DNA of 64,000 nucleotides from Candidatus Margulisiibacteriota bacterium (GTDB taxonomy: Bacteria > Margulisbacteria > WOR-1 > JAKLHX01 > JBAZKV01). The stretch is taken from contig JBAZKV010000002.1 of NCBI GenBank assembly GCA_041650635.1, positions 47,844 through 111,843 on the forward strand, given 5' to 3'. Positions 8,994-60,365 of the stretch are shown piece by piece; within the stretch, counting starts at the first letter, position 1, and every line of letters begins with the position of its first letter. Both the position numbers and the translations under genes were made by a program. The notes beneath the pieces were generated by a model. The model searched no databases, was not told where the DNA came from, and was given only the letters and a program-made list of their open reading frames with translations.

Positions 8994-10255
8994 ACCAGGA
9001 AAAGCTAGACATAGTTATAACGTCCAACAGCCCGGGGGAGTTATACTCCTTTGTTCGGCCCTGCGTAAAAAGCATCAAAGCACTGCTTCCCTCAGCCAGG
9101 ATAATCCTTGTCATAATGCCCTGTCAGTATGCCAGCGGCAGGGAAATAGAGGTGGCAAGAAGTTTTGAGGGAGTCTACGAGATCATTTTCCCTGAAGAGT
9201 TCAGGGCTTGGATGTTCAAGAACAAGCCCCCCAAAGGCATTACTTTTGCACAAAAAGGAGTACTGTTATATCTGGGAGGGGATCTGTTCCAGGCGGGACT
9301 GCTTGCAAAAAGACTCGGCTACAGGGCCGCTGCCTACATCAACGACAGGTTCGGCTGGAACAAGCTCTTTTCCAGATTTTTTGTCGCCGATGACAGGATG
9401 GCTGCAAAAGCCGCAAGAAAAAGGATATCAAAAAGCAAAGTAAGAGTGGTCGGAGATCTGATGGCGGACGGGCAAAGAGAAGAGGTCTCAAAAGAAAAAT
9501 GGGGGCTTGATCCAAACAGGCCGGTCGTAACTTTTATGCCGGGCAGCCGGAGCGCGCACGCAAAGCATATGGCGCCGTTCTTTGTAAGGACGGCGGAATT
9601 GATGAAAGAAAAATGCGAAGCGCAGTTCGTCCTGGGACTATCCCCCTATATCAACCTTGCCTCTCTGGAAAAACACCTTAAGACAGTACCTGACAGCATG
9701 ATAAAAGAAGGTCTGGGCTCTTCAGCCAGGCTCTCAGTCGAGAACGGTCAAAACTACCTCATTTCTCAAGCCGGGTCCAGGCTGCTGATAATGGACCGGG
9801 CCCCTTATGAGGCTATGGGAGTTAGCGATCTTATCCTGACCATTCCGGGGACCAACACAGCGGAGGCCGCCTCGATGGGCAGGCCTATGCTGGTACTGCT
9901 TCCGCTTAACAAAACCGAGGTGTTGATCTTTGACGGCCTGGTCGGAATTGCCGGGAACCTGCCTTTCGTAGGAGGAGGAATAAAAAAACTGACCGCCTAT
10001 GTGCTCAACAGGCTTGTCAAATACACCGCCCTGCCAAATATCAAGGCGGGGAGTTTTGTGGTGCCGGAATTAAGGGGCAGATTGACCCCCGCACAAACAG
10101 CCGATAAAGCGCTCGGACTGCTTCAAGACAAAGCGCTTCTGGAGAGGACCTCAACAGCGCTGAGGGCCGTCATGGGAAAACCGGGGGCTTCAAAAAGAAT
10201 AGCCGAGGAAGTCTCCCATATGCTGAATATGTCCGGCGGTCCAAATTTGTTATAA
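8990..10255 (+). CDS. lipid-A-disaccharide synthase-like glycosyltransferase (LpxB family, GT19-like)
   Basis: Start ATG overlaps the upstream stop (ATGA). It has an N-terminal SNSPGE motif and a central MPGSRSAH motif, which resemble the GExSGD and LPGSR signatures of LpxB. Confidence 0.5.
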   Translation: MNQEKLDIVITSNSPGELYSFVRPCVKSIKALLPSARIILVIMPCQYASGREIEVARSFEGVYEIIFPEEFRAWMFKNKPPKGITFAQKGVLLYLGGDLFQAGLLAKRLGYRAAAYINDRFGWNKLFSRFFVADDRMAAKAARKRISKSKVRVVGDLMADGQREEVSKEKWGLDPNRPVVTFMPGSRSAHAKHMAPFFVRTAELMKEKCEAQFVLGLSPYINLASLEKHLKTVPDSMIKEGLGSSARLSVENGQNYLISQAGSRLLIMDRAPYEAMGVSDLILTIPGTNTAEAASMGRPMLVLLPLNKTEVLIFDGLVGIAGNLPFVGGGIKKLTAYVLNRLVKYTALPNIKAGSFVVPELRGRLTPAQTADKALGLLQDKALLERTSTALRAVMGKPGASKRIAEEVSHMLNMSGGPNLL

Positions 10256-10265
10256 TGATACGCAT

Positions 10266-11990
10266 ATGAAACTCTTGGCCCGCCTTCTTTCATATGTCCG
10301 GCCGTACACGGGACAGCTGTTCCTTGCCTTTATCTGCATGATCTTCTTTTCCCTTTGCAACATGGCCGTCATCCCCCTGGTAAGCCAGGTCTCCAAAGCG
10401 GTCTCCGACAGGAACTTCCCTTTTTTGAACTCTCTCATAGGCGCAGTGGTCCTTGTATTTTTTGTAAAGGGCATCTTCCAGTACGGGCAGGCGTATCTGT
10501 CCTCTTTTATCGGCCAGAGGGTGGTAACCGACCTGCGGGTCAAGATCTTTGGCCATCTGCAGGACCTGTCGCTGAGCTTTTACAGCAGGTGGAAGACCGG
10601 GGAGGTGATGTCCAGGGTGATAAACGACATCTCCATGATACAGAACGCCATCGTGGTCAGCGCCACCGAGATCCTGCCGCAGCTTTTGACGCTCGTCGGG
10701 GTCCTGAGCTATCTCTTTTATCTTAACTGGCAGCTTACTCTCATGGCCCTGCTGACCGTGCCGGTCTTTGTGCTTACCATCTCAAAGTTCGGTCAGCAGA
10801 TGAGGGAGATAGGACGCAACGCCCAGAAGAAGATAGCCGACATTTCTTCCATTCTGCAGGAGACCATCTCGGGAGCAAGGATCGTCAAATCGTTCACCAT
10901 GGAAAAGCACGAGGTAAGGCGCTTTGCCCGCGAGAGCGAACACAGCTTTGGCTGGTCCATGAAAGAGGCCCAGATAGACGCCACTCAAAAACCTCTTATC
11001 GCTTTTCTGCAGGTGCTTGCGGTTGTAGCGGTCATCTGGTACGGCTGTTTTCAGGTGGTGGCCGGAACAATGGCCTCTCAGGACCTGATAGCGTTTTTTG
11101 CCGGCGCCGTCCTTTTGATAGACCCCGTCATTGTCATCTCAAAGATCAATATCACCATGCAGAGAGCTCTGGCATCTGCCGAAAGAGTATTTGAACTCAT
11201 AGACATAGTGCCGGAAATAAAAGATGCCAAAAACGCAAAGGACATGGGCAGGATAACGGGAGATGTGGAGTTCAAGAATGTAAGTTTTTGCTATGATAAA
11301 GGGCCCGAAGTGCTCAAGAACATTGATCTGGGCGTCAAAGCGGGCTCCAGCCTTGCGATAGTGGGGCCTTCCGGTTCCGGTAAGACCAGTTTTGTCAACC
11401 TGGTGCTGAGATTCTATGATCCTTTATCTGGCACAGTGATGGTGGACGGGATCGATATAAAGACGGTCAAACTGGCCTCGCTTCGCGATCAGATGGCCGT
11501 GGTCCCTCAGGAAACGCTTCTTTTTACAGCAACGATAAAGGAGAACATAATTTACGGGACGCCCGGCGCAAAGCTTGAAGCTGTGATCAGCGCGGCAAAG
11601 GCGGCCAATGCCCATGATTTTATTATGGCGCTCAAGGACGGCTATGATTCTCATGTGGGGGAAAGAGGCATGGCCCTTTCGGGAGGGCAAAGGCAGAGGA
11701 TAGCGATCGCCAGAGCCATACTGCGCGACCCAAGGATCCTTATACTTGACGAAGCGACTTCCTCCCTGGACACGGAATCCGAGCGCCTTATTCAGGACGC
11801 GATGTCCCGCCTTATGAAAGGCAGGACGACTTTCATCATAGCGCACAGGCTATCGACCATACAGAACGCGGACAGGATCATCGTGCTCAAAGAAGGTTCC
11901 GTTATCGAGGACGGCACACACGAAAGCCTGATGGCAGGCGGCGGCTTCTATAAGAACCTCTACGAGTTGCAGTTCAGCAGTCAACAATGA
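10266..11990 (+). CDS. msbA: ABC transporter permease/ATPase, lipid A exporter MsbA-like
   Basis: 574 aa. Six-TM exporter domain followed by Walker A GPSGSGKTS, ABC signature LSGGQRQR and Walker B ILILDEATS. Confidence 0.75.
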   Translation: MKLLARLLSYVRPYTGQLFLAFICMIFFSLCNMAVIPLVSQVSKAVSDRNFPFLNSLIGAVVLVFFVKGIFQYGQAYLSSFIGQRVVTDLRVKIFGHLQDLSLSFYSRWKTGEVMSRVINDISMIQNAIVVSATEILPQLLTLVGVLSYLFYLNWQLTLMALLTVPVFVLTISKFGQQMREIGRNAQKKIADISSILQETISGARIVKSFTMEKHEVRRFARESEHSFGWSMKEAQIDATQKPLIAFLQVLAVVAVIWYGCFQVVAGTMASQDLIAFFAGAVLLIDPVIVISKINITMQRALASAERVFELIDIVPEIKDAKNAKDMGRITGDVEFKNVSFCYDKGPEVLKNIDLGVKAGSSLAIVGPSGSGKTSFVNLVLRFYDPLSGTVMVDGIDIKTVKLASLRDQMAVVPQETLLFTATIKENIIYGTPGAKLEAVISAAKAANAHDFIMALKDGYDSHVGERGMALSGGQRQRIAIARAILRDPRILILDEATSSLDTESERLIQDAMSRLMKGRTTFIIAHRLSTIQNADRIIVLKEGSVIEDGTHESLMAGGGFYKNLYELQFSSQQ

Positions 11991-35331: not shown

Positions 35332-35475
35332 ATACTTCCCCTCCCCTCCTGAATTTTTGACATGGACCCGTGTTGAGAGTATATAACACAAGGCTTTGGA
35401 CTGCAATGCTGAGGGACCCTGAGCGATCCTGAGCAACGAAAGTAGTGAGGAGTCGAAGGGGAGTCGAAATGTGCG

Positions 35476-35531
35476 CCTCAACAATAATTCTAAAACTATC
35501 GGTCTGATCTCTCTGATTATACCTAATGCCA
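35476..35531. repeat. inverted repeat A (left copy), 56 bp perfect, ~95 bp imperfect (35476-35563)
   Basis: Reverse complement is identical to 39761-39816. The imperfect extension shares the terminal gaaatattgggcg. Confidence 0.9.
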
Positions 35532-35682
35532 TACATGGCTGCAAGAAGCGAAATATTGGGCGGCTTGGTCGCAAGAAATAATGTTCGGGCTTTGCTCCTC
35601 CCACACCCTCCGCAAAGCCCTATTGCTTTTGATGATGGCGGGGAGAAATCAGACCTTAATAAATACCTAAAATCGATATCAG

Positions 35683-36888
35683 TTATCTGAAGATTTTTCT
35701 TATAACATCCTTAATTTCTTTGAAAGACATATCATATTTCAGGCTTAAAGATAGTCCCTTATTAATCACATGCACAAATGACTCCTTTGAATATATAAAT
35801 TCACCGGCTCTTAAAGATTCCTCTATGGTTTCTGCTTTTGCCAAAAGACATATCAATTGGTAATCCTTATCAACATATTGGTAATTTCCATTCTTGTGCG
35901 CTTTATTTGAATGTTGGCTTGGCGTTAGCTTTATTAAATTCTCTGTATAATGGGCCAATTCCGGAAATTTATTTTTTGGAAATATGTGATGGACCTGAGT
36001 CGCCTGGCCATTTCCCCAAGTATCATGTATTTCGCTATCCAAATATTTCGCTTTAATAATATTAACTGCTTTTTGTGTTAGATAATGATCATAACCTGTG
36101 TTTTGAGATACTAAGATATCTTCCGACTCCTGTCTTGATATCTTCTTTGATTCCTGTCTTGAAATTCCCTTTGCTTTCTTTACATCCCGCCAGTTGATCC
36201 GGTTATACATTAAATCGCTATAATGAAAAGGATGTTTTGACGCTTTACCTGCTTCACTTCCAGGCAAACCATTTTCAACTGCATAAATATTGAATATTTT
36301 AGGGAATATTCTTTTTGGTTCAAAGTCTTTCTTAATGGAGGTGTTTCCTTTGATAAATCTTTCAAACCTGTTTTTAATTCTTATATATTCGGCCGCATAA
36401 TCATCACCAACATCACAAATTGTTTTATAATTTTCAAAATACGCCATTAGCCCGCTGTCTCTTAACACCTTTTCTATATAATCGCACAAAAACACATATG
36501 CGTTTCTATCTTTAAATGCTATATATTGTAGAATCTCTGGACTAACAATTTTAAAGTAATTCTTTTGCCCCCTCCTCTTGCAAGAAAGAACACCTGCATA
36601 GGACAACGCTTTCAATGGCTGTTGAATAAATTTGTCGTACTCATGTTTTGCAGCTGGGTTTTTTACCGATGGCTTGTTAAAGACAGCCTTAACGTTCTCA
36701 TTAAAATATTGTGAGTCCCAAATATCCTGAACAGTAAATTCCTTATTTATATCCGACCCCACAACATTTATCGCGCAATCCGCAATAATCGAGAGGACGT
36801 CAGGAGTGACTTTCTGATCCATAAAACGAGCATCATGTGTCTTTCTTATATCAAGGTCATTAATATTTAGATATGATCTGATGTCCAT
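35683..36888 (-). CDS. putative restriction endonuclease (HNH-like C-terminal motif), partner of fused methyltransferase
   Basis: 401 aa, AT-rich and atypical for the window. Immediately downstream of the MTase and co-oriented with it (MTase stop 36890, R start 36888). The C-terminus ...QVHHIFPKNKFPELAHYTENLIKLTPSQHSNKAH is compatible with an HNH (H-N-H) nuclease core. Confidence 0.45.
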   Translation of the reverse strand: MDIRSYLNINDLDIRKTHDARFMDQKVTPDVLSIIADCAINVVGSDINKEFTVQDIWDSQYFNENVKAVFNKPSVKNPAAKHEYDKFIQQPLKALSYAGVLSCKRRGQKNYFKIVSPEILQYIAFKDRNAYVFLCDYIEKVLRDSGLMAYFENYKTICDVGDDYAAEYIRIKNRFERFIKGNTSIKKDFEPKRIFPKIFNIYAVENGLPGSEAGKASKHPFHYSDLMYNRINWRDVKKAKGISRQESKKISRQESEDILVSQNTGYDHYLTQKAVNIIKAKYLDSEIHDTWGNGQATQVHHIFPKNKFPELAHYTENLIKLTPSQHSNKAHKNGNYQYVDKDYQLICLLAKAETIEESLRAGEFIYSKESFVHVINKGLSLSLKYDMSFKEIKDVIRKIFR

Positions 36889-36889
36889 A

Positions 36890-39403
36890 TCACACTTCTT
36901 TCATTATTCCAAAAAAGTGGACAGAATTACTGTCAATATTTAGCGAGCGTGTCCCATAATTTCTAGCTATCGAATAATATTGTTCAAATTCTTCTGAATT
37001 ATAATATTCCAAATCCTTTAATGTTACAGGACGGCTTCCATTTTTGGGGGTTAGTATAGCAACGGACCCGTCAGATATTGAATTTTTTGGCATAAAACAA
37101 GCCCTAGGGTAATATGTTAAATTCGGGACGAGAATTGCATCTTTTCGGTTTATGTATTCATGCACTTTCAAAAATGAAGCATCATCTATATAAGTATCAT
37201 AGTTATTGATGCTTAATACTTTATTGCTGCCTATATTCCTTGACTTCAATACTCTAATTTTGCCTTTATTTGAAGTAATCTTCTTTGTAATTTGCCTGTC
37301 ACGAAATGCCTTAAAAATCCCCAGATGCATTTTGTTTGACACACTGTCAAAGTATTCATTTCTGTATATCACCCAATACGGATATCTATCTGATGTTATA
37401 TACTGCTGATTTTGATAGTTCACGGATTCATTCACATATGATTCAATCTTGGTTTTTCCATTATCTTTTTTTTGTCTTACCCTATTGATAATCATGCTTA
37501 CGGTTTCGATCTTTACCCCTTTAAATGCCTCTTCACCATAATCAGTAATTTTGGCTATTGATTTAGAGGCTATTATATTCCGTGTAACATCATACTCAGG
37601 TGAATTTATAAGGCTTTTTGGAACAATTAAAGCGACCACATTACCTATATCTAAAGATTTTTCCATGAAAAAAGAAAACAAATTATTCGATTTTCTATTC
37701 TTGGCACTGCTCTTATATTCCGCTAGCAACTCTTTATTGTTTGATATCTTTTTGAACGGAGGATTCCCTATTATGACATCGTATGAATTATCAAAGGAGT
37801 GTTTGAGATAGTCCGCGTGGATAAAGTTTATACGTATATTTGAAGGAACATTTAGCGCCTTAAGTAAATATCTAAGCACATCCAGAGCCTCTTTTTCCAC
37901 ATCAATCACATCAATAACAACTTCAGGGATACTCTTATATTTTTCAATCAATATTGGCAAAAAGTTGCCCGCACCAACGGATGGTTCAAGAATTCTTATC
38001 TTCTGGTACTTTTCAGCAGCAGGCAAGTCATTTATCATCGTAAAACATATGTCTTGTCTTGTATAATAAGCTGCATTTTCCAATCTTTTTGAATTTGACA
38101 ATTCTACAATCTTCGATAAAGCAACAAAGCCCAACCGCTCAGGATTATTCTTCACAAACATTTTTAGCTTATTAATATTATGGAGATCATACTCGCTAAT
38201 TATTTTGCTTATGTTTTTGTCGTTGATTGGCGGAAACAAAGTAGTTTTCTTAATGTTTTTTGCAATTTGATGAAAAATAATTGTTGGAACTGCTTCACCG
38301 ATTGATTGGCGAATGTTCATCTCTTCTTTTCTTAATATTTCCCTTTTCTCATTAATTGATAGTTTATTCAAGAGTTTTTCGTCAGCATCAAGCCACCTAA
38401 AACTGTCAGGAATAGACATCATTATCATTAATTCTCTAATGCTGAAGACCCTATTGTCCTTTGGATGAATTGTATTTTGGCTTGCCAGAATATCATTTCT
38501 TGTATGGACACATGGGGCAGGCTTGTCCCAATAGCACCTGCTATATTTATCTCCATTTTTATTGGCATTACACACAATAACTCCGCCTATTTTTTTGTGT
38601 GGGATATTATTCTTGTTTGTATTATTAAAAGCAGACTCTCCCTCCTTAATATCTTTAATCCAATTCAACATGTTTTGATTATAGGAACGAAACCCGTGAA
38701 AGATATCATTTGGAGATATATCTCCCATTGCTTTTAACTCCGGCAAATGACCTATTGCCTTTCGCAGAGTACTTTCTTTTTGTTGTTTTGGGAATATGTC
38801 ATAGGGAGAAATATCAAAGATATCTTTTCTTGAGCCTATAACAATAGTCCTTGTTCTGCTTGAGGGGCTACCATAATCTTTAAAATTTACGATCTTAAAC
38901 AATATATGATATCTCCCGCCAAGGTTATTCTCAATCGCATCTCTGATTTTTTTTGATTTTCCGTCAAGATCAATGCATTCCGTTGTCAAAAATGATCGAA
39001 CATTCTCAAACACAAAAAATCTTGGGTTTAGTTCTTTGGTTATTTTTATCGACTCGATAACTAGAGAATTCCTGCATTTCTCATTTTTCTTTTTATGATT
39101 AGCTACAGACATGCCTTGACAAGGAGGTGTTGCAAGAATAACATCGAGCTCTTTTAAATCGTATTTATTCTTATATAAATTGTATTCATCATAAACCTTG
39201 GATTTTGTAATATGATTGGTAAGGTCACCACAGATATATCCTGAATCAATATTGCATTTATGATTTCTTCTCTGGATGTTTAAGCGTTTCTCTATTATCT
39301 CTACGGTTGCTATGCAGTTGAATCCCTCAATCTTAAACCCATAACATCCGATGCCAGCCCCGCTGAATAAACTTATATATGTTAATTTCTTATTTTTCAT
39401 CAT
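36890..39403 (-). CDS. fused DNA methyltransferase: N-terminal C5-cytosine MTase domain plus C-terminal N6-adenine (gamma-class, NPPF) MTase domain
   Basis: N-terminal half has motif I LFSGAGIGCYGF, motif IV ATPPCQGMS (catalytic Cys) and motif VI FVFENV. C-terminal half has an AdoMet motif EPSVGAGNFL followed by IGNPPFKKI (motif IV of amino-MTases). Confidence 0.75.
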   Translation of the reverse strand: MMKNKKLTYISLFSGAGIGCYGFKIEGFNCIATVEIIEKRLNIQRRNHKCNIDSGYICGDLTNHITKSKVYDEYNLYKNKYDLKELDVILATPPCQGMSVANHKKKNEKCRNSLVIESIKITKELNPRFFVFENVRSFLTTECIDLDGKSKKIRDAIENNLGGRYHILFKIVNFKDYGSPSSRTRTIVIGSRKDIFDISPYDIFPKQQKESTLRKAIGHLPELKAMGDISPNDIFHGFRSYNQNMLNWIKDIKEGESAFNNTNKNNIPHKKIGGVIVCNANKNGDKYSRCYWDKPAPCVHTRNDILASQNTIHPKDNRVFSIRELMIMMSIPDSFRWLDADEKLLNKLSINEKREILRKEEMNIRQSIGEAVPTIIFHQIAKNIKKTTLFPPINDKNISKIISEYDLHNINKLKMFVKNNPERLGFVALSKIVELSNSKRLENAAYYTRQDICFTMINDLPAAEKYQKIRILEPSVGAGNFLPILIEKYKSIPEVVIDVIDVEKEALDVLRYLLKALNVPSNIRINFIHADYLKHSFDNSYDVIIGNPPFKKISNNKELLAEYKSSAKNRKSNNLFSFFMEKSLDIGNVVALIVPKSLINSPEYDVTRNIIASKSIAKITDYGEEAFKGVKIETVSMIINRVRQKKDNGKTKIESYVNESVNYQNQQYITSDRYPYWVIYRNEYFDSVSNKMHLGIFKAFRDRQITKKITSNKGKIRVLKSRNIGSNKVLSINNYDTYIDDASFLKVHEYINRKDAILVPNLTYYPRACFMPKNSISDGSVAILTPKNGSRPVTLKDLEYYNSEEFEQYYSIARNYGTRSLNIDSNSVHFFGIMKEV

Positions 39404-39411
39404 ATTTCCTA

Positions 39412-39702
39412 TTAAAAAACAAAAAACCTACGCATTTTCTGCGAGGTTTTACTTATTTTCATGTGGAGGTTTCCCCCTCGGAACTCACCACGTATTTGCA
39501 CATATTTATATAATACTTTTTGATAAGTGTCAATGTCTTTATTTGATTGCTCTACTTGAATGCGGCTCTTACCATTATTGATATCATTATGAATTATTGC
39601 AAGCCCATCTGCAAGATACCAAATATTCAATTTCATTAATTTAGAAAAATCTCGATATCGGTATTTATTGCTTGGCGGGCGCACATTAGAGTGGGCGGTC
39701 AT
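39412..39702 (-). CDS. hypothetical small protein upstream of the MTase
   Basis: 96-aa ORF on the same strand as the restriction-modification genes, with no recognisable motif; it may or may not be real. Confidence 0.25.
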   Translation of the reverse strand: MTAHSNVRPPSNKYRYRDFSKLMKLNIWYLADGLAIIHNDINNGKSRIQVEQSNKDIDTYQKVLYKYVQIRGEFRGGNLHMKISKTSQKMRRFFVF

Positions 39703-39760
39703 AAGGAAGCGCCCGCCATATAACGAAACCGCCCAATATTTCTTTAATATGGGCCGTACT

Positions 39761-39816
39761 TGGCATTAGGTATAATCAGAGAGATCAGACCGATAGTTTT
39801 AGAATTATTGTTGAGG
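39761..39816. repeat. inverted repeat A' (right copy)
   Basis: Exact reverse complement of 35476-35531. Confidence 0.9.
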
Positions 39817-39945
39817 CGCAGTTGATTATTGTTGCGAACTAATGTTCCGCAAGGTTTTTCTTCAGCAGTTTTTAACTTCCCTTTTTCATTTTTAAAAGCA
39901 CTATCAAGGCGGCTTGGGGCTGGGTGGCGGCAGCCCCAAGCCGCA
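39815..39945. repeat. inverted repeat B' (left copy); continues imperfectly to ~40064
   Basis: Reverse complement of 43706-43840 (119 nt perfect plus 1-mismatch extension); contains a 12-bp-stem GC hairpin (ggcggcttgggg...ccccaagccgcc). Confidence 0.9.
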
Positions 39946-39959
39946 GAAAGATGCTCTTC

Positions 39960-40064
39960 CTAGCACAATTCTTTTTTCTTATCGCCATTTAAGAAGGCGG
40001 GCTCGTAATTGGCGCTGTCCAACAGTGCTACTTCTATTGCCTCTTTAGAATAAATTAAAAGATG
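39960..40064 (-). pseudogene. inverted, diverged partial copy of the serine-recombinase gene 3' end
   Basis: Minus-strand translation ...HLLIYSKEAIEVALLDSANYEPAFLNGDKKKELC* parallels the recombinase segment ...KALIYSKEAIEVSLLYSANDSPAFENGSKKKELS... Confidence 0.5.
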
Positions 40065-40269
40065 TGCCTTTTTGAGCTGAAATATATTGTCCTCTCCCTG
40101 TTTTCCCAGTTTATCATTTCCCCGCTTTTCGCTGTCAAGTTGGGACCGATCTGATCGGTCCCAACTGCTCCAGTCAGCTTCGACTCGCCTGCGCGGCAAT
40201 GAGACACATAGCTCCGGCTCGCTCATCCTCCTTCCGCCCCTACGGGTGACAGCGGCGGGGAAATGATCC

Positions 40270-40827
40270 TTGATTCTCAAGGAGGTGTCGTATATGTCTA
40301 TTCACCGTTTGGCAGGGGTTGTGGGGTCCCGTTCTCTTCCGGTTCGTTTTGCTCCGCTCGTTGATCAGGTTGTGTCTTTGCTTCTGTCTCGCGGGTTTGA
40401 TGTGGCTTCGGGCGGCGCCGTGGGCGCTGATCAGTTTGCTTTGTCTGCTCTCCTTGGTTGCGGCGCTTCATCTCGCGGCGTTATTCATTCAGCCTGGTCT
40501 TCTATTGCGGGTTTCCCCTCCCAGGTCCGCGCTGATGTGGTTCGGTTCATTGCGGCCGGGGGTCGCGTGGTCTGGGGCTCTGCTTCTGCCGGTTCTCCCC
40601 GCTCTGTTGCCGTTTCTGCTCTTCTTGGCCGCAATAGGCGTTTGGTTTCCGCATCCTCTGTCATTGTTGCCTTTCTTCACGGGTCCTCGCGCGGCTCTCT
40701 TTACACAGTTCGTCAGGCTGTTTCCCGGGGCGTTCCTGTCATCGTCTTTCTTTGCGGCTCAGGTGCTTATATCCCATTTGATCTTTCCGCCTATTGCCAC
40801 ATCTTTAATTATGCTTCAGGAATTTAA
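40270..40827 (+). CDS. DprA/Smf-like Rossmann-fold (SLOG-type) protein, compositionally foreign
   Basis: SGGAVGADQFALSALLG (cf. DprA GGAxGxDxxAHxxAL), VVWGS and TVRQAVSRGVPVIVF regions. The coding strand is almost devoid of A, and the protein has no Lys or Glu after residue 5. Confidence 0.45.
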   Translation: MILKEVSYMSIHRLAGVVGSRSLPVRFAPLVDQVVSLLLSRGFDVASGGAVGADQFALSALLGCGASSRGVIHSAWSSIAGFPSQVRADVVRFIAAGGRVVWGSASAGSPRSVAVSALLGRNRRLVSASSVIVAFLHGSSRGSLYTVRQAVSRGVPVIVFLCGSGAYIPFDLSAYCHIFNYASGI

Positions 40828-40867
40828 CTGTGTTGACTTTTACCTGCAACTTTTGTACAATAAAGCC

Positions 40868-41203
40868 ATGTTTGGCAATAGGATCAGAGAACTTAGGAAT
40901 AAAGAAGATCTTACGCAAAGAGAATTTGCCAAGAAGATTGGGATCGATTTTACATACTTAAGCAAAATCGAGAACGGAAAAATGGATCCTCCTTCAGAAG
41001 CAACAATAATGAAGATGGCTGAGGTCTTGAAGGTGAATTCTGATGAATTATTGACTCTTGCAAAGAAATTTCCTAAAGATTTGAATGATATCTTGCATAA
41101 GAACCCGCGAACGATCGAACTTCTTCGTGCGATTCAGTCAAAAAGGATAACTGACGACGAAATCGATAAATTATTCGATAGGATTAAACACGAAAAACGA
41201 TGA
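40868..41203 (+). CDS. XRE-family helix-turn-helix transcriptional regulator
   Basis: MFGNRIRELRNKEDLTQREFAKKIGIDFTYLSKIENGK is a classic Cro/C1-type HTH. The 5' 550 nt of long ORF 40319..41203 is an alternate-frame artefact over the dprA-like gene. Confidence 0.7.
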   Translation: MFGNRIRELRNKEDLTQREFAKKIGIDFTYLSKIENGKMDPPSEATIMKMAEVLKVNSDELLTLAKKFPKDLNDILHKNPRTIELLRAIQSKRITDDEIDKLFDRIKHEKR

Positions 41204-41925
41204 AATATATCTCATACGATAAAATCGAAACTTTGACCGAGCAAAGACTTTGCGAATATGAAAGTAAATTCGGTCAGATAGTTTCGCCTCCGATTCCCAT
41301 CGACAAAATAATTGAAAGATTATTCAGCCTGCGTATTCTCTGGGAAAATATTCACGAAGAAGATGGGGAGGTGATCCTCGGTGGTCTTCGTCCGAACGAG
41401 AAGCAGATTGTTCTGAATGATTCGAGAATGCCTCTTTTTAATAAATATGAAGGATTAGAGCCTTTTACAAAGGGCCATGAGTTGGGGCATTGGGACTTGC
41501 TCGAGGAAAAAGATTTGATTGGCCACCAGATGTTCAACTTTTTGACAAAAAGCAGCTTTGTTTTGAGGAGTTCATCTGATAAAGATGCCGAAAAAGTCAG
41601 AGTGCTAATTGCAAATCTTTGGAAAGGACCTGATTTCTACAAAGTAATAAAATCTATTGAAGGCAAAAAAGATGATGCAATTACAAAAAGAATTATTGAC
41701 AGATATGCAAGTACCCTTTTGATGCCAAAACATCTGATAAAAAAAGTTTGCGCAACTCTTGATATTTTGAGCTGGAGCGATCTATATAAGCTACGTAAAA
41801 TCTTTAATGTGACAATTTCTGCCCTTACCGTGAGGCTTCAACAGCTGAATATGATATACATTGATAACAAGAAAATCTATAAGTCAAAGGAGGATGCAAT
41901 CGGTCAATTAGCCCTAATAAGATAG
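41200..41925 (+). CDS. ImmA/IrrE-family zinc metallopeptidase (COG2856-like)
   Basis: HELGHWDL (HExxH) about 90 aa from the N-terminus. The gene overlaps the XRE stop (ATGA), the typical XRE-ImmA pair organisation. Confidence 0.55.
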   Translation: MKYISYDKIETLTEQRLCEYESKFGQIVSPPIPIDKIIERLFSLRILWENIHEEDGEVILGGLRPNEKQIVLNDSRMPLFNKYEGLEPFTKGHELGHWDLLEEKDLIGHQMFNFLTKSSFVLRSSSDKDAEKVRVLIANLWKGPDFYKVIKSIEGKKDDAITKRIIDRYASTLLMPKHLIKKVCATLDILSWSDLYKLRKIFNVTISALTVRLQQLNMIYIDNKKIYKSKEDAIGQLALIR

Positions 41926-42022
41926 GATTCGAGCATCGCCCTATTAGGGCATTTTTTATAAGGTCGATGTTGCAGTTGAATATCAACGCAACAAATAAGG
42001 GCGATAGATAATTACGAAAGGG

Positions 42023-42304
42023 GTGATTGACGTGGCTACACAGTCGGAAATAATTGCGGCTATCGAGCAGCGAGTAACTACTTCCAAGACAGTACAGTAT
42101 TCCATTTGGACTATAGGGATAACAGCTGATCCAAAACAACGAAGAGATCAACATGAATCTGATGGAAAAAACACAGCCCACTGGATGCATTGGAAAGCTG
42201 ATTCAGAAACGATAGCAAGGAATGTTGAAAAATACTTCCTAAGTAAAGGCATGAAAGGTGACGTAGGCGGAGGAATTTATCCAACATACGTTTATATTTT
42301 CTAG
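42023..42304 (+). CDS. hypothetical small protein
   Basis: 93-aa ORF between immA-like and recombinase genes, with no recognisable motifs. Confidence 0.25.
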   Translation: MIDVATQSEIIAAIEQRVTTSKTVQYSIWTIGITADPKQRRDQHESDGKNTAHWMHWKADSETIARNVEKYFLSKGMKGDVGGGIYPTYVYIF

Positions 42305-42378
42305 CCAGTTTTGTATCCCAAGGGTATTGCGTTAAATGCTCTACCCTTGGGGGCATATAAAGAAAGGAGAACAAGCGT

Positions 42379-43896
42379 ATGAAAGCCGCTATCTATACGA
42401 GGGTTTCTACCGATGGACAGGCCGAGGTCGAGTTTAATTCGTGCGAGACACAGGAGATCAAGATCAGGTCGTTCATATCAAGCCAGAATGATCTTGAGGT
42501 CCATAAGGTCTATTCCGACCAAGGATATACAGGAGCCAATACAGACCGGCCTGCCCTGCAGGAGATGATAGGCGACATACAGAATGGGAAGATCAATCTT
42601 GTTATCGCGTATAAGATCGACCGCTTAACAAGATCTCCTAAAGATTTTTATCAGCTTATTGAGATCTTTGAGCAATACAACGTCAGTTTTATATCAGTCA
42701 CGGAAAGATTTGACACCTCTACCCCATCCGGAAGGCTTTTGAGGAATATAATGCTCACTTTTGCCCAATTTGAGCGTGAGCTCATCAGCGAAAGAATAAA
42801 AGACAAAATGTTTGAACGCGCTAAAAAGGGCTTTTGGTGCGCCGGAGTAACGCCTTTCGGCTATAAGAGAGAAAACAAAAGGCTGGTAATTGAACCAAGG
42901 GAAGCGGATATTATTAGGACCATATTTGAAACCTTTGTTTCAACAGGGGTCTTGGCTGAAGTATATGAGCTGTTAAAAAAGAAAAAGATGTTTGGCAGGA
43001 ATGGACTGCCCATATTGAAAACCTGCATTTCTTACATCTTAAGGTCCACAGTTTATGTGGGAAAGGTCAGGCATAACGGGAATTTTTATAAAGGTTTGCA
43101 TGAGCCGCTTATTTCAGAAGAGCTCTTTCAAGAAGCTCAATTATTATTTAAGCCACTTAATAAAAAAAGCAAAGTCTTTAACTATACGCTATTTCCGGGA
43201 TTGGTCAGGTGTAAAGAATGCGGCTCGGTTATGACATCAGTTTTTACGAACAAATTCAGCAACGGCAAGCGGGTAAGGTATTTTTATTATCGCTGCACAT
43301 CAATAGTAAAAAGAGACGGATCGTTCTGCGGCATCAAACAGGTAAGCTCCGACAGATTAGACTCATATATCGTTGATAATCTCGATAAAATAGCAAAAAA
43401 TCAGCAGTACCTGGATAGTTTGATTTTTATGCTCAATAATCAGGCCAAGGGTAGGCAAATTGGGGTCGAACCAAACGGGGACGGCTCTTTTTATACCTCC
43501 GAAAGAGTGCGCGAGATCATAGGAAAGATCGTTAAAGCCTCAAAACTGCAAGGAAATGTTGAAAAGAGGGCTGTCATAAAAAGGCACATCAAGGCATTAA
43601 TTTATTCAAAAGAGGCAATAGAAGTATCCCTGTTGTACAGCGCAAATGACTCGCCCGCATTCGAAAATGGCTCTAAGAAAAAAGAATTGAGCACGGAAGA
43701 CCATCATTCGGCGGCTTGGGTCTGCCGCCACCCAGCCCCAAGCCGCCTTGATAGTGCTTTTAAAAATGAAAAAGGGAAGTTAAAAACTGCTGAAGAAAAA
43801 CCTTGCGGAACATTAGTTCGCAACAATAATCAACTGCGCCATGTTGGATTCGAACCAACGGCCCGCTGCTTAAGAGGCAGCTGCTCTACCAACTGA
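42379..43896 (+). CDS. large serine recombinase (resolvase/invertase N-domain plus recombinase domain plus zinc ribbon)
   Basis: MKAAIYTRVSTDGQ (catalytic Ser region), a ~150-aa resolvase domain, a recombinase domain and CKECGSVM...YYRC zinc ribbon. The final ~65 codons read through inverted repeat B, a GC hairpin and tRNA-Lys (..VGFEPT..), so the true stop probably lies earlier. Confidence 0.8.
   Translation: MKAAIYTRVSTDGQAEVEFNSCETQEIKIRSFISSQNDLEVHKVYSDQGYTGANTDRPALQEMIGDIQNGKINLVIAYKIDRLTRSPKDFYQLIEIFEQYNVSFISVTERFDTSTPSGRLLRNIMLTFAQFERELISERIKDKMFERAKKGFWCAGVTPFGYKRENKRLVIEPREADIIRTIFETFVSTGVLAEVYELLKKKKMFGRNGLPILKTCISYILRSTVYVGKVRHNGNFYKGLHEPLISEELFQEAQLLFKPLNKKSKVFNYTLFPGLVRCKECGSVMTSVFTNKFSNGKRVRYFYYRCTSIVKRDGSFCGIKQVSSDRLDSYIVDNLDKIAKNQQYLDSLIFMLNNQAKGRQIGVEPNGDGSFYTSERVREIIGKIVKASKLQGNVEKRAVIKRHIKALIYSKEAIEVSLLYSANDSPAFENGSKKKELSTEDHHSAAWVCRHPAPSRLDSAFKNEKGKLKTAEEKPCGTLVRNNNQLRHVGFEPTARCLRGSCSTN
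43706..43840. repeat. inverted repeat B (right copy); similarity continues inward to ~43590
   Basis: 43722-43840 is perfectly reverse-complementary to 39815-39933. The outer end includes the last 6 nt of tRNA-Lys. Confidence 0.9.
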
Positions 43897-43907
43897 GCTA
43901 ATGGCGC
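43835..43907 (-). tRNA. tRNA-Lys (anticodon CTT)
   Basis: Reverse complement GCGCCATTAGCTCAGTTGGTAGAGCAGCTGCCTCTTAAGCAGCGGGCCGTTGGTTCGAATCCAACATGGCGCA; the anticodon loop CTCTTAA gives CTT. Confidence 0.8.
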
Positions 43908-44036
43908 AAAACTAATAAACCTTCACTGCCTAGCACTGAGCGACCCCGAGCCCTGTCGAGGGGGAGTCGAAGTGCTAATGGCGCAAATAAGAAAGCTTTC
44001 AAATAAAATTATAACATGACACAACGGGGCAAATGG

Positions 44037-59348: not shown

Positions 59349-60365
59349 ATGATAAAAAGCGATCATTACAGGACAGCCACCTTTATAGCGCTTCTGGTGA
59401 TATCGACGCTCCTTTTTCTGCTTCTGCTGAGGCCGTTCTTTAAGCCGATCGGGGTCGCGTTCATAGGCTCCATCCTGGTATACCCCATGTACAAGTGGGT
59501 CAGTTCGGTCTCAAGGTCGAGGACATTCGGCGCTTCGGTAAGCGTGCTCACTCTTATAGCCGTGTTTGTGGCGCCTCTCATATTCTTAACCTACGAGATC
59601 TACAAAGAGCTTACCGATCTTCTCCTGCTCATGAGGGGCAGCTACAGCCCGGAATATGTAGGCAGGCTCGCCGAGGCCGCAAGGTCCCTGCCCGGCGCTT
59701 CGGAAGTAATAGCAGGCATTAATGAAACCGCCCAAAGAACGGCCTCGTATTTTGCCGCCCAGGCTTTTTCTACGATTAAGAACATAATCTGGTTCCTGGT
59801 AGAGATATTTGTGGTGCTCATAACAATATTCTTTGTCCTAAGGGATTCCTCTTCTCTGCTTGACAGGACTCATGCCCTTTCCCCGTTCAAGAAACATGAG
59901 ACCGACACGGTCCTTAACAAGATCAGGGACACCATTTATGCCACGGTGTTCGGCGTGGTAGTGGTAGCCATGGTCCAGGGGTTCATCGGAGGATTGGGCT
60001 TTGCCATGCTGGGCCTGGAGTCTCCCGTCCTTTGGGGCTGTGCGATGGCCCTGCTGGCCATGATACCTTTTCTCGGAGCGCCTGTGATCTGGTTCCCCGC
60101 TGTCGTCTATCTGTTCCTGCACGGACAGTTCCTGAGCGCTGTGTTCCTCTTTTTGTGGGGGGCTTTTGTGGTGGGGCTCATCGACAATGTGCTAAGGCCG
60201 CTGATAATAGGAGGAAAAGCCCGGCTGCATTCCCTGCTTGTTTTTTTCAGCGCCTTCGGAGGCATAATACTTCTGGGGCCCGCCGGAATATTCTTTGGCC
60301 CTATAATCCTGTCCATAACGCTGGTGCTGGCTGATTTTCTGGAAAAGAAGATAAAGGAATCGTAG
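59349..60365 (+). CDS. AI-2E family transporter (PerM/UPF0118)
   Basis: 338-aa polytopic membrane protein with the conserved region ...IPFLGAPVIWFPAVVYL...GLIDNVLRPLIIG. Confidence 0.7.
   Translation: MIKSDHYRTATFIALLVISTLLFLLLLRPFFKPIGVAFIGSILVYPMYKWVSSVSRSRTFGASVSVLTLIAVFVAPLIFLTYEIYKELTDLLLLMRGSYSPEYVGRLAEAARSLPGASEVIAGINETAQRTASYFAAQAFSTIKNIIWFLVEIFVVLITIFFVLRDSSSLLDRTHALSPFKKHETDTVLNKIRDTIYATVFGVVVVAMVQGFIGGLGFAMLGLESPVLWGCAMALLAMIPFLGAPVIWFPAVVYLFLHGQFLSAVFLFLWGAFVVGLIDNVLRPLIIGGKARLHSLLVFFSAFGGIILLGPAGIFFGPIILSITLVLADFLEKKIKES

Follow-up and report, generated by a model that had tools for sequence, protein, structure and literature searches.

A DprA-like gene with an adenine-depleted coding strand

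We analysed a 64,000-nucleotide (nt) stretch of contig JBAZKV010000002.1 from a Candidatus Margulisiibacteriota bacterium, hereafter the window, in which a DprA-like gene on the plus strand, the first gene of a ~4-kb serine-recombinase element, is written with very little adenine (A) in its coding strand. A preliminary description of this DNA had reported a 558-nt open reading frame (ORF) at 40270-40827, and this ORF is present with a TTG start; the true start is likely the ATG at 40294, six bases past the ribosome-binding site AAGGAGGTG. The gene and the features directly upstream of it are:

40294-40827, plus strand: DprA-like gene encoding a stand-alone Rossmann-fold domain of 177 amino acids (aa), with an adenine-depleted coding strand (Pfam, AlphaFold2/Foldseek, composition)
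40279-40287, plus strand: ribosome-binding site AAGGAGGTG for the ATG at 40294 (sequence reading; GGAGGT is invariant in the leader alignment)
40108-40266, minus strand: conserved long hairpin, a candidate Frpo-like single-stranded-DNA promoter on the single-stranded template (fold z score, covariation, hexamers)

The base content of the gene is 8.2% A (44/534), 28.1% C, 27.3% G and 36.3% T. Across all 534-nt segments of the 64 kb the mean A fraction is 0.249 (standard deviation 0.045), and the minimum, 0.075, falls at the DprA-like gene, whereas the lowest value elsewhere on either strand is 0.154. The unusual composition described earlier is thus confirmed, and it is even stronger than first described: the very low A content stands, although the GC content is 55% rather than the ~60% that had been given, compared with 34-40% in the surrounding island. 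Indeed, the 177-aa product read from the ATG contains no Lys and no Glu, as had been claimed, and 83% of its residues belong to the ten amino acids for which A-less codons exist (F, L, S, C, W, P, R, V, A and G). The alternate frame at 40319-41203, which continues into the downstream gene for an XRE-family regulator, is open as reported, because the coding strand is poor in A; one other plus frame and all three minus frames of the gene hold 3-8 stops each, because 44 A are still present. A second, far weaker A-poor stretch lies at 59932-60186, with a minimum of 8.8% in 240 nt.

The protein matches the Pfam family DNA_processg_A (PF02481) with 43.2 bits against a cut-off of 29.6, over profile positions 45-186. 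An AlphaFold2 model of the window protein, built on 20 family members, reached a predicted local distance difference test score (pLDDT) of 91.7, and the best Foldseek matches in the PDB were ShosA (8zva, E = 4.5e-9) and Helicobacter pylori DprA (4ljk, E = 1.6e-7), with template-modelling (TM) scores of 0.72-0.74. The DprA/SLOG fold proposed from the sequence is therefore borne out by a Pfam match above threshold and by similarity to solved DprA structures; structures of LOG, molybdenum-cofactor carrier and ThsA-SLOG proteins were also matched, far behind ShosA and DprA. The protein consists of the core domain only (~175 aa), with neither SAM nor winged-helix domain, and it scores 32.9 bits against the canonical DprA model TIGR00732, whose equivalog cut-off is 191. 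It is a stand-alone DprA core domain, not an orthologue of the transformation protein, and represents a new subfamily of a known fold. With DprA/Smf (PF02481) and ShosA it shares the Rossmann fold (TM 0.73) and the motifs GSR, SGGAxGAD, RNR and SRGS...T; it differs from DprA/Smf in being a core domain alone, borne on a mobile element and encoded by an adenine-depleted gene, whereas the one more distant DprA-type relative of canonical length that was compared (locus L041) is not depleted (28% A; A fraction at fourfold-degenerate sites 0.29 vs 0.37 in neighbouring genes).

Four motifs, GSR, SGGAxGAD, GRNRR and SRGSxxT, are invariant in the close family. R13, R113 and G134 are invariant even in the most A-poor members, and N114 is kept in the close family and lost in those extreme members. 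Mapped by motif rather than by explicit alignment, R13, R113, N114 and G134 appear to correspond to R52, R143, N144 and G164 of the H. pylori DprA pocket. In that protein the most conserved pocket (Y108, R143, N144 and G164) receives a thymine, and R52, K137 and R143 are important for binding (PMC3950713). The measured Kd is 31 nM for dT35, 370 nM for a random 30-mer and 1200 nM for dA35, so that poly-dA is bound ~40 times more weakly than poly-dT (PMC3950713). The window protein probably binds single-stranded nucleic acid and interacts with RecA.

The preliminary description had also linked the gene to nucleotide-signalling conflict systems, which the neighbourhood does not support: there is no cyclase or other generator, no effector and no ShosT/PsyrT-type toxin nearby, and the conserved partner is a large serine recombinase in a small mobile element. 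In particular, no gene for a phosphoribosyltransferase-type toxin, as expected for ShosTA or PsyrTA, adjoins the gene in the window or in 30 related loci, which sets the protein apart from ShosA, and its PADLOC matches to ShosA (E = 3e-7) and PsyrA (E = 6e-6) are weak.

Adenine avoidance across the family and at synonymous sites

A protein search returned more than 240 homologues of ~175 aa with 63-90% identity, the named sources being Margulisbacteria, Saganbacteria and WOR-1 metagenome-assembled genomes (MAGs); among the 120 homologues listed, pooled Lys and Glu contents are 0.5% and 1.3%. In 26 close loci taken from species-representative genomes the gene contains 3-13% A (24 of the 26 at ≤10%), compared with 21-34% in the flanks, and several genomes hold 2-6 copies of it. 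Homologues from Marinamargulisbacteria (~45% identity) show a moderate depletion, at 16-21% A, and neighbouring genes still have 2-3 times as much A at fourfold-degenerate sites. A search of cluster representatives revealed extreme relatives whose proteins are made to 93-99.5% of the ten "A-free" amino acids, and DNA was recovered for seven of them. Six of these genes contain 0.5% (L046), 1.8% (L047), 0.3% (L048), 1.4% (L049), 0.9% (L051) and 1.4% A (L052), and in L050 the first 178 codons are A-free, after which the ORF goes on in normal composition; the surroundings of the seven have 17-28% A. The Asp of the GxD motif (D46) is the only A-containing codon universally retained in the extreme genes, two of which start with GTG, and the ribosome-binding site of L048 is itself A-less (GGGGGTG). 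Across the loci of the relatives (~640 kb including the window) and seven further mobile-element loci, high-GC hosts aside, the A-free stretch is unique to the DprA-like gene. The depletion is therefore a property of the family across several bacterial phyla and not of the window copy alone.

In L050, from an Ignavibacteriae MAG (10001-10942), the 178 A-free codons run without a stop into 135 codons of normal composition, which resemble a signal peptide or membrane segment, so that the A-free tract finishes ahead of the ORF end; either a stop codon was lost or this is a natural fusion.

The borders of the A-poor tract follow the cistron. When the loci were aligned on the conserved N-terminus, mean A fell from 0.15-0.23 just upstream to 0.02-0.13 (mostly ≤0.1) within the ORF and was back at 0.21-0.40 within ~30 nt of the stop codon, the border being the stop codon or the ribosome-binding site of the next gene. 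Indeed, the conserved "KEV" with which most members end at the C-terminus merely reflects the ribosome-binding site (AAGGAGGT) of the following gene, and the co-transcribed downstream genes are rich in A right from their opening bases. Among the extreme members the A-free tract extends over 40-70 nt upstream of the start as well (more in L051 and L052), and in L048 and L051 the terminator hairpin past the stop is A-free as well. In L052 (9880-10000), ~90 nt upstream of a canonical TTGACA-17-TATACT promoter are A-free too, which gives the impression of a promoter placed within a pre-existing A-free leader. We also observed GGGTGACA, followed 8-10 nt on by an A-run, in the leaders of L047 (~1822-1829) and L049 (~207-214) and in the Margulisbacteria-type leaders.

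Codon usage was compared between 24 family genes, pooled, and neighbouring genes. A occupies 4.8% of fourfold-degenerate third positions vs 21% in the neighbours, AGY codons account for 4.6% vs 32% of Ser and AGR codons for 11% vs 52% of Arg, and CAA was used for Gln once in 140 cases. The proteins are under purifying selection, with a median ratio of non-synonymous to synonymous substitution (dN/dS) of 0.23, and synonymous sites are saturated, with a median synonymous difference (pS) of 0.58. The third position varies in each of the 25 conserved fourfold-degenerate columns, nearly always among T, C and G. Since synonymous sites are saturated and yet vary almost only among T, C and G, the exclusion of A must have been held for a long time. 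A second, overlapping reading frame as the constraint is ruled out by the variation in every conserved fourfold column and by the dN/dS of 0.23.

The avoidance depends on the base that precedes the A. Codons ending in A are depleted 23-fold when the second base is G (GGA, CGA), 8.5-fold when it is T and ~3-fold when it is C. The same holds across codon boundaries: the degenerate base before a codon starting with A is G in 1 of 162 cases vs 19% elsewhere (p = 2e-13), C in 64% vs 24% (p = 6e-25) and T in 35% vs 52%. The moderately depleted clade shows the same preceding-base effect, and the background genes of the same loci show none. Because the effect spans codon boundaries, tRNA usage and amino-acid choice are excluded as its source, and the order of avoidance, GA, AA, TA, CA, points to a reader of single-stranded nucleic acid; on the template strand these contexts equal TC, TT, TA and TG. 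The skew is thus functional rather than accidental, one of the options put forward in the preliminary description, but the avoidance of lysine-targeting modification suggested there does not account for the shaping of synonymous sites and cross-codon dinucleotides, which makes the loss of Lys and Glu a by-product of nucleotide avoidance.

In the family alignment Asp is encoded by GAT 55 times and by GAC twice, and His and Tyr show no preference between T and C; the base following an unavoidable GA therefore also seems to matter. Neither Chi-like nor other shared DNA motifs were consistently enriched in the GT-rich strand. A general avoidance of purines, giving a pyrimidine-poor template that would be poorly bound by SSB, RecA and DprA, was rejected, since degenerate sites show no consistent loss of G and in L048 and L051 hold more of it.

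The leader hairpin and the mobile element

The leader, which separates the gene from the left repeat of the element by 150-290 nt, folds into a long hairpin, with a DNA fold z score of -7.8 in the window and -7.0 in L008. Compensatory changes occur in 20 of 39 predicted pairs among ten aligned loci, several of them in the 19-bp closing helix. The most conserved blocks of the minus strand are TTGACA, a spacer of 19-20 nt and TGn-TAnnnT, an arrangement present in 19 of 26 loci vs 0.65% of shuffles; in the window these are TTGACA at 40138-40133, the extended -10 element TGA at 40116-40114 and TAAACT at 40113-40108. The folded strand pairs the -35 element, the spacer (which a 4-5-nt bulge shortens), the TGn and the leading T of the hexamer, and it leaves AnnnT unpaired at the foot of the stem. 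Sigma-70 holoenzyme binds tightly to "fork-junction" DNA, which is duplex to about -12 and single-stranded beyond, and the hairpin geometry resembles such DNA. On a single-stranded template this geometry, as read from the sequence, would steer RNA polymerase onto the template of the DprA-like gene, whereas in duplex DNA the TTGACA and TAAACT hexamers face away from the gene and have an over-long spacer. A promoter scan of the plus strand upstream of the gene found no ordinary promoter, and an Rfam search of the leader gave no structured-RNA match at E ≤ 1. In L048 and L051 the corresponding sequence is CTTGAC(A/G)GAAGnTGG, then TATAAT or TATGCT at the stem base, and the A-free tract starts at the stem.

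Single-stranded-DNA promoters of the Frpo type have been described in plasmid leading regions (PMC11541004). The leader described here is like Frpo and ssi in arrangement, and no sequence similarity to Frpo was seen, although no search aimed at it was made: a long hairpin lies upstream of the first early gene, and the -35 and -10 elements are in the folded strand, which is the template of the gene. It differs in residing in a 4-kb serine-recombinase element that lacks relaxase and oriT rather than in a conjugative plasmid, and in placing the -10 hexamer, with an extended TGn, at the junction of stem and single strand. Within the window leader, a perfect 13-bp palindrome at 40150-40176 (GTTGGGACCGATC...GATCGGTCCCAAC) forms an internal hairpin arm, in a part of the leader that is variable in other loci.

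The gene sits in a low-GC island (~35500-43840) that adjoins tRNA-Lys(CTT) and consists of two cassettes, of which cassette B (39815-43840) is the recombinase element. The remaining features of the island are:

35472-39820: cassette A, a type II restriction-modification cassette with no recombinase, between the host flank and the recombinase element
39815-40058: left terminal inverted repeat of cassette B, which repeats in inverted form the 3' end of the recombinase and 7 nt from the 3' end of the tRNA
40868-41203, plus strand: XRE-family helix-turn-helix regulator (HTH_3, E = 5e-17)
41200-41925, plus strand: ImmA/CapP-like HExxH metalloprotease, partner of the XRE regulator (PADLOC capP, E = 1.3e-13; PHROG metallo-protease; HELGH motif)
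42023-42304, plus strand: 93-aa ORF inside the element, with no family match
42379-43896, plus strand: large serine recombinase (Resolvase, Recombinase and Zn_ribbon_recom), whose ORF crosses the right inverted repeat into tRNA-Lys
43597-43840: right terminal inverted repeat of cassette B
43834-43908, minus strand: tRNA-Lys(CTT), the integration target (ARAGORN, Rfam, junction sequences)

The XRE, ImmA and recombinase neighbours mentioned in the preliminary description were all found, as an HTH_3 regulator, an ImmA/CapP-like HExxH protein and a large serine recombinase. The XRE gene has its own sigma-70-like promoter at 40833-40861 (TTGACT-17-TACAAT, promoter scan). CapP, a regulator protease of CBASS, is activated by single-stranded DNA, and the ImmA-like protein and XRE pair may couple recombinase expression to single-stranded DNA or DNA damage. 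The best NCBIfam match of the recombinase is the CcrB model (E = 4e-58), at 197 bits and thus below the family cut-off of 900; with three characteristic domains and an element end next to the attachment site, cassette B is a large serine recombinase element. Its inverted repeats of 244 nt are 92% complementary, and the outer ~130 nt are 100% identical and the inner part diverged, a pattern suggesting that the ends still undergo exchange or conversion; the left repeat is conserved in 13 related loci. The last 7 nt of tRNA-Lys are duplicated, inverted, at 39815-39821, and the joined ends would form the perfect palindrome CAACAATAATCAACTG[CG]CAGTTGATTATTGTTG. Circularisation would give the recombinase a C-terminal tail other than that of the integrated element; a fusion in which the recombinase runs on through the A-poor region of the circle is unlikely, as every frame of the left repeat and leader contains stops. 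Cassette A (REase_II, E = 1e-98; MTase_II, E = 1e-236; a methyltransferase that fuses 5-methylcytosine and N6-adenine modules) has inverted ends of 98 nt (35472-35569 and 39723-39820) that would form their own CG-centred palindrome, GAATTATTGTTGAGG[CG]CCTCAACAATAATTC, and it has the appearance of a non-autonomous passenger that a related recombinase would mobilise.

In related genomes the conserved core comprises the left repeat, the DprA-like gene, an ORF of 60-80 aa, the recombinase and the right repeat, abutting a tRNA gene that varies by copy (Ile, Ala, Met, Lys, Tyr, Val, Glu or Arg). The terminal inverted repeats measure 218-244 nt and include the 3' coding end of the recombinase itself (window, L001, L002, L008, L012, L013, L015-L017 and L019), and L016 is inserted in the opposite orientation to L013, both at tRNA-Tyr. 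Insertion in either orientation, at least eight tRNA species and several copies per genome together indicate a symmetric attachment site with flexible target recognition. The element has the Resolvase, Recombinase and Zn-ribbon domains of large serine recombinase elements and, like them, carries the recombinase at its end reading into the attachment site, but it differs in its 218-244-nt terminal inverted repeats that hold the recombinase 3' end, in the palindromic CG-core joined site and in the use of many tRNA 3' ends in either orientation; it is a new variant of these elements. In other integrative elements the extreme relatives are found at the edge or early in the element: L046 is accompanied by a tyrosine integrase and an XRE regulator and L048 and L051 by ArdA and numerous small ORFs; L052 has a prophage-like setting, and L050 is in a defence island. 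Annotation of the small downstream ORFs and of the neighbours of the extreme members gave no family matches, and regarding a phage origin, the family profile had no match in IMG/VR and tblastn none in GenBank phages.

Explanations of the adenine depletion

Any explanation has to account for an effect that is specific to one strand and to A, with GA avoided far more than CA, that covers one cistron and its untranslated flanks and that is confined to one gene family. The reading we favour, with a probability of roughly 0.35, is that the gene is an early gene expressed during a single-stranded stage, whose message has been selected to resist purine-A-directed attack on single-stranded RNA. The DprA-like gene would serve the early establishment of a small integrative element, and its transcription would begin at a hairpin promoter formed only while the template strand is single-stranded. 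Long-term selection would have removed adenine from the transcript, chiefly after a purine (GA far more than AA, then TA, then CA), so that the A-poor message would be a poor substrate for adenine-directed attack on single-stranded RNA. HEPN RNases such as Csm6 and Csx1 cut at purine-A; such an RNase, or a CmdT-type ADP-ribosyltransferase acting at GA, could be the agent. The protein would still be produced while other messages become inactivated, a logic that would be that of an antidote or rescue factor and would account for the protection of this protein only. We infer from the data that expression would take place in the single-stranded phase, that RNA rather than template DNA would be under selection, that the attacker would be of this kind and that the protein would be needed under attack.

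CmdT ADP-ribosylates the N6 of adenine in GA of single-stranded but not structured RNA and blocks translation (PMC11618068), and the GA avoidance in the genes matches this specificity. The likeness to CmdTAC, in that GA is both its target and the most avoided dinucleotide, and that structured RNA is spared just as the A of the leader lies mostly in helices, is one of specificity alone; here AA and TA are avoided too. The position of the gene at the edge or in the early region of integrative elements, twice with ArdA, also counts for this reading. Messages lacking ACA resist MazF, and with such toxin-escaping messages the DprA-like transcripts would share the property of being translatable through the absence of the toxin's recognition element; they differ in that a whole nucleotide rather than a motif of 3-7 nt has been removed, with the protein rebuilt from about ten amino acids, and in that they occur naturally across a large family.

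Several observations weigh against expression under attack. No attacking enzyme was identified in the hosts, where no search for CmdTAC was made, and the element has no relaxase, oriT or recognisable transfer genes that would make it single-stranded. The co-transcribed downstream genes (XRE or small ORF, and recombinase) and early genes such as ArdA are not A-depleted, so that a reason is needed why only the DprA-like protein should be made under attack. Neither the hairpin of L048 (z = -1.7) nor that of L051 (z = -0.7) is a statistically significant fold, A does occur in the Margulisbacteria-type leaders, mostly within hairpin helices, and the window copy, with 44 A left, is among the less extreme members of the family. 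Finally, GA on the RNA is TC on the template, so that the footprint may also reflect a thymine-directed attack on single-stranded DNA.

Indeed, selection could have acted on a thymine-free template if, during a single-stranded stage of the element, T-directed attack on single-stranded DNA, for instance DarT-type ADP-ribosylation at T before C or T, blocks RNA polymerase and leaves only T-free templates transcribable. The candidate promoter would act on the single-stranded template strand, and the A-free 5' untranslated regions, the A-less ribosome-binding sites of some members and the GTG starts would all fit an unblocked template. DarT recognises TNTC and TTTW; the avoided template contexts TC, TT and TA agree with this, and the tolerated TG is not used by these motifs. 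Such motifs need two or three T, however, and an isolated GA in a gene already poor in A would not have to be avoided ~40-fold. Furthermore, the A-free terminator hairpins of L048 and L051 would be unneeded if transcription of the ORF suffices, and the template of the remaining element is T-rich and would stay blocked. We regard selection on the template as unlikely, though it deserves to be kept in view.

The composition might instead mirror the binding preference of the protein itself, an A-free, pyrimidine-rich message or sense strand being the best lattice for autoregulation by, or loading onto, its own gene. Translational autoregulation is known for gp32 of phage T4. The trait is confined to the DprA-like family in very different elements, the invariant R13, R113 and G134, with N114 in the close family, appear by motif to match the H. 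pylori pocket, and H. pylori DprA favours dT35 over dA35 (PMC3950713). Autoregulation, however, needs only the translation-initiation region and not a whole protein rebuilt from ten amino acids; there is no avoidance of G, which is even enriched in L046, L048 and L051, the pocket Asn is lost in the extreme members, and the difference between GA and CA has no basis in known binding data. Taken together, these points make self-binding rather unlikely.

It is doubtful, but an attractive possibility, that the protein is an antidote to a base-specific poison and that its message is written without the poison's target. In one form, a DprA/SLOG-fold enzyme may reverse the ADP-ribosylation of RNA adenine or of single-stranded-DNA thymine, for which the base-binding pocket and the invariant Asp46 may provide the chemistry, by analogy with the related LOG N-glycosidases. 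In the other, the protein may sequester the cyclic oligoadenylate that activates adenine-cutting RNases. If the antidote reading is true, the A-free gene would be the one message expressible from an incoming single strand under attack, rescuing the rest of the element.

Erosion of A by localised, strand-specific hypermutation of adenine, with selection retaining the essential A, could arise through error-prone reverse transcription of the gene's own transcript and recombination back, or through damage by the protein's own activity. The continuum of A content from 20% down to 0.3% and the retention of A only in functionally critical codons (D46 everywhere) would suit such a process. Adenine mutagenesis by diversity-generating retroelements favours T among the replacements, and in the family all three other bases stand in for A, T being the preferred one at degenerate sites. 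Yet the elements of 3-4 kb hold no reverse transcriptase or second template copy, the 3' border lies no more than a few bases from the stop codon, with A-rich sequence directly after it, the co-transcribed downstream genes are untouched, and the active choice of C before the remaining A is a signature of selection and not of loss, which leaves hypermutation improbable. A diversity-generating retroelement in particular was rejected, as the elements share no conserved reverse transcriptase and no conserved second copy of the gene.

A transcript that spares ATP, under scarcity caused by ATP-degrading defence effectors or (p)ppApp-synthesising toxins, would require ATP from RNA polymerase's supply at very few positions of the first cistron, and it would explain why the A-free part comprises only the leader and the promoter-proximal cistron, with normal downstream genes, and why the extreme members lose A from the 5' untranslated region, terminator, ribosome-binding site and start codon. 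ATP supply does not predict that GA should be treated differently from CA, though, tRNA charging for translation needs ATP anyway and other early genes show no such adaptation; we consider this quite improbable. Escape at the level of tRNA or protein, from anticodon nucleases acting on Lys, Glu, Gln, Asn, Tyr, His and Asp tRNAs or through a lysine-free protein, is brought to mind by the near absence of Lys, Glu, Asn, Thr, Met and Ile and by integration in tRNA genes, but it is largely refuted by the synonymous and cross-codon dinucleotide effects, for which the background control was negative, and it leaves the A-free untranslated leaders and terminators of the extreme members unexplained, so that it is very improbable. 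Recent import from a compositionally different donor, unadapted to the host, which the preliminary description had offered as one of two options and which would suit the GC content of 55% vs 34-40% in the island, can practically be dismissed, as every close homologue is depleted in many hosts of 35-60% GC, synonymous sites are saturated and A is still excluded from them, the gene borders are sharp, and a strand asymmetry of 8% A vs 36% T is unlike a genome-style composition.

A literature search on adenine-free or adenine-depleted bacterial genes and on DprA-like genes in leading regions found nothing relevant, and no precedent emerged from the literature searched for a whole gene that excludes one nucleotide and bears a dinucleotide footprint. 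These natural coding genes exclude one nucleotide, sometimes entirely bar one Asp codon and the stop, which amounts to a new principle of gene design, and they show for protein engineering that some ten amino acids suffice to make a folded DprA domain. The tRNA-targeting serine-recombinase element with palindromic ends is unusual and may interest genome engineers, and the upstream hairpin would extend single-stranded-DNA promoters beyond conjugative plasmids. The composition offers a simple signature with which to screen for other "poison-proof" genes, and the avoidance of GA far above CA is a footprint able to identify the agent. The genes imply that mobile elements, while becoming established, face a strong and widespread pressure on their single-stranded nucleic acid that is specific to one base, and they point to a previously undescribed way to keep one message expressible while single-stranded adenines are attacked.

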